From NCBI GenBank assembly GCA_034190465.1, contig JAXINV010000003.1:46047-99607 (forward strand): a DNA stretch of 53,561 bases, written 5' to 3'. Source of the stretch: Candidatus Asbonarchaeum danakilense. GTDB taxonomy: Archaea > Nanohalarchaeota > Nanosalinia > Nanosalinales > Nanoanaerosalinaceae. Below are positions 1 through 1,847 of the stretch, one piece after another; the stretch's first letter is position 1, and each line of letters starts with the position of its first letter. Below the pieces are notes generated by a model that was not told the origin of the DNA, did not search any database, and saw nothing but the letters and a program-made list of their open reading frames with translations. The position numbers were made by a program, and so were the translations under genes.

Positions 1-173
1 TTCCCATCGTTCTCCGGCACGTCCGTCAGGAACCTGTACATCAGGTGCGGCGAATGCACATTGACATCGTGCTCCTCCAGCACATCCCAGAACTCCTCCA
101 GGAACGCCTTCTTCTCCTCATTCGCCTTCTGCGGGTTGATCGAGATCGGCCCGGCGAAATACACGTTCTTCAT
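1..173 (-). CDS. nucleoside 2-deoxyribosyltransferase-like protein, N-terminal fragment (gene runs off the window start)
   Basis: Not in the ORF track (only 57 codons before the edge). Minus-strand ATG at 173-171 with GGAGGTG 7 nt upstream. Translates MKNVYFAGPISINPQKANEEKKAFLEEFWDVLEEHDVNVHSPHLMYRF... The VYFAGPI start is typical of NDT/Rcl-fold proteins. ATGA start/stop overlap with the deoC-like stop (170-172). Confidence 0.45.
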   Translation of the reverse strand, partial: MKNVYFAGPISINPQKANEEKKAFLEEFWDVLEEHDVNVHSPHLMYRFLTDVPENDG

Positions 174-865
174 CGTGCCTCACCTCCAGCGATGGCGACA
201 CCGCGCAACGCACCGATACGGAACCGCTCCGGATCAGGGTCGAACCCCGAGGCCTCAAGCATCCTGGACGCCTCCTCCGCATCCTTGATACCGCCAGACG
301 CCTTGATACCCGTCCCCGCATCCAGCTCAGCCAGCGTCTCCGCCATCAGCTCGACGTCATCGGCACGGGCGCCATGGACGCCAAAGCCTGTCGACGTCGC
401 GATGAAATCAGCATCCGCCTTCACCGCCGCCCGGTACGCCTGCACCTTCTCAGCATCCGTCAGATTACAGTTCTCACAGACCACCTTCAGCGTCGTCCCC
501 GGGACCGCCTCACGGACAGCCCGGAGATCCTCCACGGCCTCCACGAGCCGTTCATCCCGGATGTAGCCCTGATTGATCGGGACCTCAATCTCATCCGCGC
601 CATCGGCGACCGCTTCCTCCGCCTCACCGGCCTTAACCCTCGTCACGCAGCGTCCGTGGGAGAATCCAGTGACAGCACAGACCGCCACATCCCGCCCAAG
701 GCGGTCAGCAGCGAACGCGACATCCCCACCGTACACACAGACCGAGGCGAACCCGTACCGCTCAGCCGCATCGCACAGCTCCGCAAGATCGTCGCTCCGT
801 GCATCCGGATACAGGTTCGTGTGGTCGATCAACGGTGCCAGTTGCTCAGATCTATCGTCATCCAT
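170..865 (-). CDS. deoC: deoxyribose-phosphate aldolase (DeoC/DERA) family protein with atypical active site
   Basis: IDHTNL, LKVVCENCNL, ADFIATSTGF and GIKASGGI line up with DERA motifs, but the Schiff-base Lys is Ala. ATG 865 has GAGGTG about 9 nt upstream. The track start at 880 is GTG. Confidence 0.75.
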   Translation of the reverse strand: MDDDRSEQLAPLIDHTNLYPDARSDDLAELCDAAERYGFASVCVYGGDVAFAADRLGRDVAVCAVTGFSHGRCVTRVKAGEAEEAVADGADEIEVPINQGYIRDERLVEAVEDLRAVREAVPGTTLKVVCENCNLTDAEKVQAYRAAVKADADFIATSTGFGVHGARADDVELMAETLAELDAGTGIKASGGIKDAEEASRMLEASGFDPDPERFRIGALRGVAIAGGEAR

Positions 866-1847
866 CCCCGTACACCTCACGCAGCGCCTTCAGGCATTCC
901 TCCTCACTGTTGAACTCCCTTTCACAGTTGAAGTCCGTGAACGGCCCGGCATGGCCTTCCGGCTTGATGATCCACACCGGCTTGCCCGTCCGGGACGCAT
1001 AATTGACCTCGTACTCCACGCCCGAGGAATACACCATCTCCGGAAAGTTCACGATCACCATATCCGCCTGATCGATGAACTGCTGGTCACGCTTCACCGT
1101 ATGGTTGTTGATCAGCTCAGCGATCCTTTCGTTCTCGAAGTCCCGGACATCGATCTCAATCGGGTCGAACACCACCGCATCGTCCCGAAGCTCCTCCACA
1201 TACTCCTGCACATCGTCCAGCGTCTCCCTGTCCAGGTTCGTGATCGGGAAGCTCTGGTACACCTTCGGCAGGTGGTCGTTGAACACGATGTTGTACAGCG
1301 ACTCCGCTGGATGCTGTCGGGCCAGCACGTAGAACGGGCGGCGATGGAAATCAGACAGGATGCGGTTCGTGTACCGCTCCACCTCCTGCCAGCGGATCAC
1401 CTCCTCCAGCGACGGCTTCCGCTCCTCCGGCAGCTCCTCGTTCTCCTGCAGCCGGTCCTTGATGTCCGGCTCATAGTCGATGATCTGGATGTAGACATCA
1501 GGATCCAGCTCCTGCAGATAGCTCGTATTGATAGCCGGTTCAGGGCCGTTCTTCACCCAGAACGACGCATGCGCGTCCAGCACATGTACCGTATCCTCGT
1601 CATCAGGGTTGATCTCCGACGAGATCGACTCGAACGCAGCTGCACGCCACGCATTCACCGTGGATTCAGGGAAGCCCATCAGATCGTACTTGCCGAGATC
1701 CGGGTAGTCCTTCCGCCCGATCTCCAGGATCTTCGACCCCAGATCATGGATCTCGATATCCTTACCCTTCTCCTCGCAGAGCCGTTCGAACTTCTCCAGG
1801 TACTCCTTCTCACCACAGCCAGCGATCCCATTGGAAAAGACGAGCAT
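858..1847 (-). CDS. fusion protein: archaeal adenylate-kinase-like domain with degenerate P-loop plus nucleoside 2-deoxyribosyltransferase-like C-terminal domain
   Basis: N-terminal GIAGCGEKE and LDAHASFWVKNG..LDPDVYIQIIDYEPD resemble AdkA (GxPGxGKST, DTHA..PD.I). The C-terminal KVYQSFPIT ... ADMVIVNFPEMVYSSGVEYEVNYA resembles the NDT motif (DSGTxxExGYA). TATA (rc GTTTAAAA, 1867-1874) lies 20-27 nt upstream of ATG 1847. Overlaps deoC by 8 nt. Confidence 0.5.
   Translation of the reverse strand: MLVFSNGIAGCGEKEYLEKFERLCEEKGKDIEIHDLGSKILEIGRKDYPDLGKYDLMGFPESTVNAWRAAAFESISSEINPDDEDTVHVLDAHASFWVKNGPEPAINTSYLQELDPDVYIQIIDYEPDIKDRLQENEELPEERKPSLEEVIRWQEVERYTNRILSDFHRRPFYVLARQHPAESLYNIVFNDHLPKVYQSFPITNLDRETLDDVQEYVEELRDDAVVFDPIEIDVRDFENERIAELINNHTVKRDQQFIDQADMVIVNFPEMVYSSGVEYEVNYASRTGKPVWIIKPEGHAGPFTDFNCEREFNSEEECLKALREVYGDG

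Follow-up and report, generated by a model that had tools for sequence, protein, structure and literature searches.

The window, by which we mean the whole 53,561-nt stretch of DNA that was analysed, encodes a protein (P0001) that belongs to the deoxyribose-phosphate aldolase (DeoC/DERA) family by descent and fails the defining catalytic features of that family. Aligned with its homologs, P0001 is without the Schiff-base nucleophile, without one residue of the proton relay and without one phosphate ligand, and it is very probably not an aldolase. A second DERA, of haloarchaeal type and with a full set of catalytic residues, is encoded elsewhere in this genome. On balance we favor the view that P0001 is a native aldolase that was inactivated after or alongside the acquisition of this haloarchaeal xenolog, and that its reading frame is still under constraint.

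A DERA-family protein without its catalytic lysine

The reading frame and the codons discussed below are the following.

170..865, minus strand: DeoC/DERA-family ORF of 231 aa (P0001), assigned by TIGR00126, PF01791, PDB DERA chains and an AF2 model
398..400, minus strand: codon 156, GCG (Ala), at the position of the Schiff-base lysine (E. coli K167); the alignment has K in 239 of 240 sequences
584..586, minus strand: codon 94, GAG (Glu), at the position of the proton-relay aspartate (E. coli D102); the alignment has D in 239 of 240 sequences
578..580, minus strand: codon 96, CCG (Pro), on the β-strand shared with D102; Val in 239 of 240 homologs
206..208, minus strand: codon 220, TTG (Leu), at the position of the phosphate-binding serine (E. 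coli S238); S in 235 of 240 sequences
302..304, minus strand: codon 188, AAG (Lys), the second active-site lysine (E. coli K201), kept according to the alignment

P0001 matches the deoC equivalog TIGR00126 over residues 8-206 with 195.7 bits (cut-off 117.3) and PF01791 with 61.2 bits (1.4e-16; cut-off 23.8). PDB DERA chains match it at E 2e-41, and the alignment is gap-free near the active-site strand. The AF2 model, which was predicted from an alignment of active homologs, has a pLDDT of 93.9, and its best Foldseek matches are DERA structures (TM 0.89, rmsd 1.2-1.5 Å). P0001 is thereby predicted, with high confidence, to be a (β/α)8 barrel superposable on solved DERAs.

A first-pass annotation of this DNA had reported an alanine in place of the Schiff-base lysine, within the motif ADFIATSTGF. 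The translation confirms both the motif and the GCG codon (codon 156, positions 400-398). The register on which that report depended is also correct, in the multiple alignment as well as against known enzymes: the ADF[IV]-K-TSTG of the PDB DERAs and of E. coli DeoC aligns gap-free to ADFI-A-TSTG, leaving no lysine at the catalytic position. The family landmarks that it had listed, IDHTNL, LKVVCE (with K127) and GIKASGG (with K188), are present as described. With residues numbered after the MG1655 record of E. coli DeoC, D16, C47, D102, K137, K167, K201, S238 and S239 correspond to D14, C43, E94, K127, A156, K188, L220 and R221 of P0001, respectively.

In characterized DERAs, K167 forms the Schiff base and its exchange leads to loss of function, while D102 and K201 take part in the proton transfers (reviews; PMC6244999, PMC8403123). 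The substrate phosphate is hydrogen-bonded by S238 (PMC8403123). The changes in P0001 extend beyond the lysine that had been noted before, to the proton-relay aspartate (now E94), the phosphate-binding serine (now L220) and six near-invariant columns in all. They were assessed in an alignment of 240 DERA sequences, drawn from the best matches to each of the two DERAs of the genome, P0001 and the second copy. P0001 is the sole sequence in it without K at 156, without D at 94, without V at 96 and without I at 129, and the sole one with L at 220. Among the 26 columns conserved at 97% or more, it departs at six (P69S, D94E, V96P, I129V, K156A and S220L); 212 of the other homologs show no departure at these columns, and the maximum is two. 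In the phosphate site, both KASGG glycines (the equivalents of G204 and G205) are kept, and position 220 has leucine for serine. K127, on the LKVIxE strand, and K188 are both retained.

With lysine, aspartate and serine replaced by alanine, glutamate and leucine, covalent class I aldol chemistry on deoxyribose 5-phosphate (dR5P) should be abolished, judging from the established DERA mechanism. The first-pass annotation had considered that the protein might have changed its chemistry or taken on a binding or regulatory function, or that the nucleophile had migrated elsewhere. Its description of a DERA-fold protein lacking the canonical Schiff-base lysine stands. Migration of the nucleophile does not: P0001 has six lysines in all, none of them new relative to its sister orthologs, and the equivalents of D102 and S238 are replaced too. 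For a changed chemistry, or for a function in binding or regulation, there is no positive support. A related idea is that P0001 is still a DERA in which another residue, e.g., K188 (K201) or K127 (K137), forms the Schiff base. Both lysines are indeed retained in the active site; however, every active DERA has their equivalents, and K167 mutants are not rescued by them (review, PMC6244999). Together with the changes at D102 and S238 and the lack of any gained lysine, this makes such a rescue highly improbable.

The altered codons in independent assemblies

The gene is spanned by Logan contigs from two salt-lake runs of one study (X1 and X2), which are possibly the source of the metagenome-assembled genome (MAG) but were assembled independently. 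None of these contigs lists a difference at 398-400, and the Logan protein P0121 differs from P0001 only in its last residues. The earlier argument that a single base-call error is unlikely, as GCG lies two substitutions away from a lysine codon, is borne out by this result and by the orthologs in three related genomes, which use AAG at codon 156.

Two runs of another study (X3 and X4) contain a strain that is about 6% diverged. Among the differences listed for X3 (27 of the 37 in the 1-634 piece, none of them beyond position 589, with X4-only differences lying outside this list), none falls at codons 94, 96, 129, 156 or 220. Reading the list as complete for X3 up to position 589, this strain appears to share E94, P96, V129, A156 and L220. 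Both indels relative to X3 and X4 are 3 nt long.

The MAG is divided into 81 contigs, and no Logan contig agrees with it in the last three codons, as might be expected if the unusual residues were an artefact of sequencing, assembly or binning. Such an artefact would have to produce two changes within one codon together with five other unusual substitutions, next to flanking genes that are normal. It would also have to recur, as neither the Logan assemblies of the two runs nor the related strain from another study list a difference at codon 156. We rejected this explanation on the ground that the Logan assemblies carry the same Ala codon, and regard its probability as negligible.

Two further observations concern the comparison with the Logan contigs. 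At window positions 175, 177 and 197 the MAG differs from all four Logan runs, and at 179 from X1-X3. The tail of P0001 reads ...GGEAR and that of P0121 reads ...GGD followed by two unaligned residues, maybe a consensus or polishing difference upstream of the start codon of the downstream gene. Separately, window positions 576-720 (codons 49-97) correspond in X3 and X4 to a block too diverged to align, with flanks that are about 94% identical. The block is 3 nt shorter in these strains and in frame; it may stem from recombination or from local relaxation.

An operon whose DERA keeps the catalytic residues in related genomes

P0001 lies in a gene module with the following elements.

858..1847, minus strand: upstream coupled gene, 329 aa, with a P-loop kinase-like N-terminal half and an NDT-fold (nucleotide N-glycosidase-like) C-terminal half, assigned by Pfam AAA_17 and Nuc_deoxyrib_tr
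858..865, minus strand: ATGGATGA, 8-nt overlap between the DERA start and the stop of the upstream gene; the same overlap is found in G001
170..173, minus strand: ATGA, 4-nt overlap in which the DERA stop meets the start codon of the downstream gene; also present in G001 and G002
3..173, minus strand: downstream coupled NDT-fold (DUF4406) gene, first 57 codons, continuing beyond the window edge into a scaffold gap of 100 N; assigned from the G001 ortholog

The two overlaps, at 865-858 and 173-170, agree with the translational coupling on both sides that the first-pass annotation had described, and both the 8-nt and the 4-nt overlap of the DERA gene are common to the same-genus genome G001 and to G002. 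In these two genomes the module runs from a kinase/NDT fusion through the DERA and a DUF4406 NDT-fold protein of about 140 aa to a cytidylate kinase. The G001 ortholog of the downstream gene, which precedes that kinase, matches DUF4406 and Nuc_deoxyrib_tr. The 329-aa protein shows weak PDB matches to CMP N-glycosidase and adenylate kinase. From these assignments, the module would plausibly turn (deoxy)nucleotides into deoxyribose 5-phosphate and convert this product to glyceraldehyde 3-phosphate along with acetaldehyde.

Between our genome (G000) and G001 the 329-aa fusion is 85% identical, with its SSGVEYE motif conserved, and the DERA only 68% identical. Measured by crude identity, G000 and G001 are equally close to G002. 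Judging by the names of the homologs, P0001 belongs with Nanohaloarchaeota. Operon-type DERA is present in four of the 41 genomes searched (G000 and 40 relatives). The proteins closest to P0001 (P0002-P0011, 50-71% identity) keep the lysine, the aspartate and the serine in all cases; by this comparison, the loss of catalytic residues is confined to this species-level lineage.

Structure prediction of a complex between P0001 and the neighboring 329-aa kinase-NDT protein gave a score of 0.00; run without controls, it is neutral with respect to binding. The DUF4406 NDT-fold gene is broken just upstream of window position 1, at about L002:1153-1254, by some 100 N in a row, translated as 34 X codons and apparently a scaffold gap. 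Because of this break, the downstream frame past the N looks like a 247-aa NDT/cytidylate-kinase fusion, which corresponds to two separate genes in G001 and G002.

A second, intact DERA of haloarchaeal type

A family search of the genome (1.2 Mb in 81 contigs) revealed another DERA on contig C2, scoring 199.8 bits.

C2:5583-6263 (L001:1462-2145), plus strand: second DERA, 227 aa (P0122), assigned by the family profile and the alignment

The catalytic set of P0122 is complete, with the aspartate, the three lysines and the SS pair in place. Its gene has a PRPP synthase-like gene on one side and an AMP phosphorylase-like gene on the other. The best relatives, 70-76% identical, are halobacterial DERAs, among them those of Natronomonas, Halapricum and Halorubrum, and there is one relative of 87% identity (P0123). 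In the tree P0122 is nested among halobacterial sequences, well away from the nanohaloarchaeal operon type. No copy of the P0122 type was found in the 40 relatives, whose sole match to P0122 is the operon DERA. Since P0122 is of haloarchaeal type and was not found in these relatives, it was probably acquired horizontally from Halobacteria. Transfer from Halobacteria to nanohaloarchaea has been reported to be common (PMC9765267).

The possibility that C2 is a contaminant was ruled out, because the AMP phosphorylase-like neighbor of P0122 is 87-88% identical to a gene of G001 and the GC content of the contig is typical. In G001 this AMP phosphorylase-like gene (L013; G001:C1:326181-330611) is preceded by a different gene of 274 aa, without the PRPP synthase and the DERA, so the two species differ by a rearrangement around the acquired gene. 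Aligned with G001 at the DNA level, the C2 locus is uninformative; local synteny differs, with no simple insertion apparent.

P0001 would then be the native, operon-encoded DERA that ceased being an aldolase. Loss of the resident chemistry would be tolerable because the genome holds an intact second DERA with the full catalytic set. The simplest order of events would be that the host-type DERA was acquired and the resident copy subsequently lost its chemistry. We infer that the two events are causally linked.

Loss of the lysine in other DERAs

To place the alanine of P0001, species-representative genomes and JGI metagenomes were scanned for the coding pattern of ADF[IV]ATSTGF, which covers Ala at the lysine position within that pattern only. 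Five of the seven matches are true DERA homologs with alanine at the lysine position, from Corynebacterium pacaense (L023), an Opitutaceae MAG (L022) and metagenomes (L018, L019 and L021). The remaining two are chance matches in unrelated ORFs and were discarded. The equivalent of S238 is also lost in four of the six K-to-A cases, P0001 included.

In C. pacaense, the intact 219-aa ORF at L023:1483-2139 (plus strand) has K137T, K167A, K201T and D102G, and is the sole TIGR00126 match of its genome. The lysine is kept in all 26 Corynebacterium orthologs with a readable motif. The homolog of the Opitutaceae MAG (L022:1480-2169, plus strand) has K167A and S238D, and an intact DERA of the long, E. 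coli-like type lies 3 kb upstream on the same contig (L022, L024). Twelve orthologs from this family keep both the lysine and the serine.

The soil metagenome sequence at L021:3723-4436 (plus strand) combines K167A with D102E, as does P0001. Of its 120 closest relatives (P0242-P0361, Acidobacteria), 34 are without the lysine, which is replaced by T, E, A, Q, S, R, M or N. On the tree these losses amount to at least about 12 events, or at least four counting well-supported branches only, and the lysine-less clades have up to 12 members. A tight group of 11 sequences carries K201E and G236S in addition. In these alignments and trees, loss of the DERA nucleophile is recurrent, sometimes as a terminal singleton and sometimes as a small persistent clade. 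Literature searches on DERA pseudoenzymes, and on DERA in Nanohaloarchaeota or DPANN, brought up no specific reports.

Constraint or decay in the altered copy

The diverged strain X3 allows an estimate of recent selection on the gene. Over codons 98-228, the listed differences between X3 and G000 comprise 11 synonymous and 7 non-synonymous changes, giving an omega of 0.21 and a binomial p of 0.0015 against neutrality. Omega is 0.30 when the tail is included (codons 98-231), the estimate being based on 18-21 listed differences, and 0.24 across the whole G000-G001 path. The DERA gene thus appears to have been under purifying selection since the strain split, at a dN/dS of about 0.2-0.3.

On the protein trees and in tests with near outgroups, P0001 appears to have changed modestly faster than its sister clade. 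The P0001 branch measures 0.57 vs about 0.30 for the sister clade path in one protein tree, and 0.46 vs 0.21-0.30 in another. Tajima tests with the nearest outgroups count 25-28 unique changes in P0001 vs 12-17 (p 0.01-0.09); with distant outgroups the relative-rate tests give no signal of acceleration, owing to saturation. Five of the 17 polarised P0001-specific changes fall in invariant columns, where two are expected (p = 0.04), and the polarised changes of the sister lineage are all in variable columns. The active site looks as if it had been given up or remodelled within a barrel that is still conserved.

The main rival explanation is a redundant gene that drifts neutrally. P0001 would then be a nascent pseudogene, its ORF still open owing to the short time elapsed, the rarity of stop codons at 63% GC and the coupling to its neighbors. 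The joint alteration of several invariant residues and a branch about twice the sister clade path are what such drift would produce. The tight overlaps on both sides would keep the frame without keeping the protein, since the downstream NDT and kinase genes would no longer be coupled in translation if the frame were broken. The K-to-A variants elsewhere also speak for decay: those of Corynebacterium and Opitutaceae are single terminal twigs among orthologs that keep the lysine, a pattern which fits short-lived decay better and counts against durable retention of the dead copy. Coupling, however, cannot account for conservation at the amino-acid level. The dN/dS of about 0.2-0.3 since the X3 split is significantly below 1 and as low as the 0.24 of the G000-G001 path, few substitutions lie outside the active site, and the 1.2-Mb genome is streamlined. 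We therefore consider a nascent pseudogene unlikely, although it deserves to be taken seriously.

With its ORF intact, coupled on both sides and evolving at a dN/dS of about 0.2-0.3, the dead copy is probably retained as a non-catalytic protein, either as a structural partner or for the integrity of the operon, and not as a free pseudogene. We infer continued selection on P0001 in this limited sense. A further-reaching proposal is that it has become a selected non-catalytic DERA-fold subunit of a nucleotide-salvage module, which binds or stabilizes the NDT-fold N-glycosidase and kinase proteins or senses a sugar phosphate. P0001 would then belong to a recurrent, hitherto undescribed class of DERA-derived pseudoenzymes with further members in Acidobacteria, Corynebacterium and Opitutaceae. 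We hold this proposal to be doubtful.

The remodelled active site may also be read as adaptation, to a new ligand or to non-Schiff-base chemistry within the nucleotide-salvage module. The lineage-specific changes (P69S, D94E, V96P, I129V, K156A and S220L) cluster on the ends of the active-site strands, purifying selection is apparently ongoing, and small persistent clades of lysine-less DERA homologs exist in Acidobacteria. The enrichment is weak, however (p = 0.04; five vs two expected), and lost constraint on a useless site would give the same. The sequence shows no obvious new functional residue or motif, the change is limited to one species-level twig, and the literature searched gives no non-aldolase activity for the DeoC family. 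Repurposing of the site seems to us quite unlikely. An inactivated native aldolase, retained under constraint beside an acquired haloarchaeal one, agrees best with our observations.

Implications for annotation and metabolic reconstruction

Because P0001 scores above the equivalog cut-off, annotation pipelines will call it deoC, so that two aldolases are counted where probably one works. Such a miscount matters for metabolic reconstructions of DPANN symbionts, which rest on few salvage enzymes. The locus also offers a clean and datable example of a host-type gene, here from Halobacteria, arriving in a nanohaloarchaeal genome alongside the loss of function of the resident gene. Should selection indeed act on the dead copy, DERA would join the enzyme folds that have yielded pseudoenzymes. 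The repeated loss of the lysine in Acidobacteria suggests that the phenomenon is wider than one genome. We regard the case as one of xenologous replacement in a DPANN symbiont and as a caution for annotation, rather than as demonstrated new chemistry.

Comparison with known DERAs

P0001 resembles the canonical E. coli-type DERA in its full-length homology (about 42% identity) and its predicted TIM barrel (TM 0.89), and retains the equivalents of D16, K137 and K201, the KASGG loop and the TSTG motif. Like the canonical enzyme, it is found among genes of nucleotide and nucleoside catabolism. It differs in having Ala at the Schiff-base lysine, Glu at D102 and Leu at S238, along with V96P, I129V and P69S. 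By descent it is placed in the DERA family; with these residues, the reaction of the family is not expected of it.

Laboratory mutants of DERA with an exchanged active-site lysine are used because they are catalytically impaired. Like such mutants from E. coli (1JCJ/1JCL, matched in the family search) and B. halodurans (K184L, 6MSW), P0001 combines an intact barrel with a non-nucleophilic residue in place of the active-site lysine. Those are engineered single changes, whereas the change in P0001 is natural, accompanied by the loss of the aspartate and the phosphate-binding serine, and fixed in a lineage.

With the nanohaloarchaeal operon-type DERAs (P0002-P0011; G001, G002 and G012), P0001 shares the clade, a C-terminal insertion (DPDP...FRIGAS), the four-gene operon and the overlaps. 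It is the sole member of this group without the lysine, the aspartate and the serine that all the other members have.

The bacterial lysine-less DERAs (L018, L019, L021-L023 and the 34 of 120 acidobacterial sequences) are, like P0001, full-length homologs without the Schiff-base lysine, and the Opitutaceae genome resembles G000 in that an intact DERA is present too. These proteins arose independently of P0001 and have different gene neighborhoods. In C. pacaense all three lysines are gone and the genome gives no further DERA match. The acidobacterial lysine-less forms make up small clades; P0001, in contrast, is a single twig.
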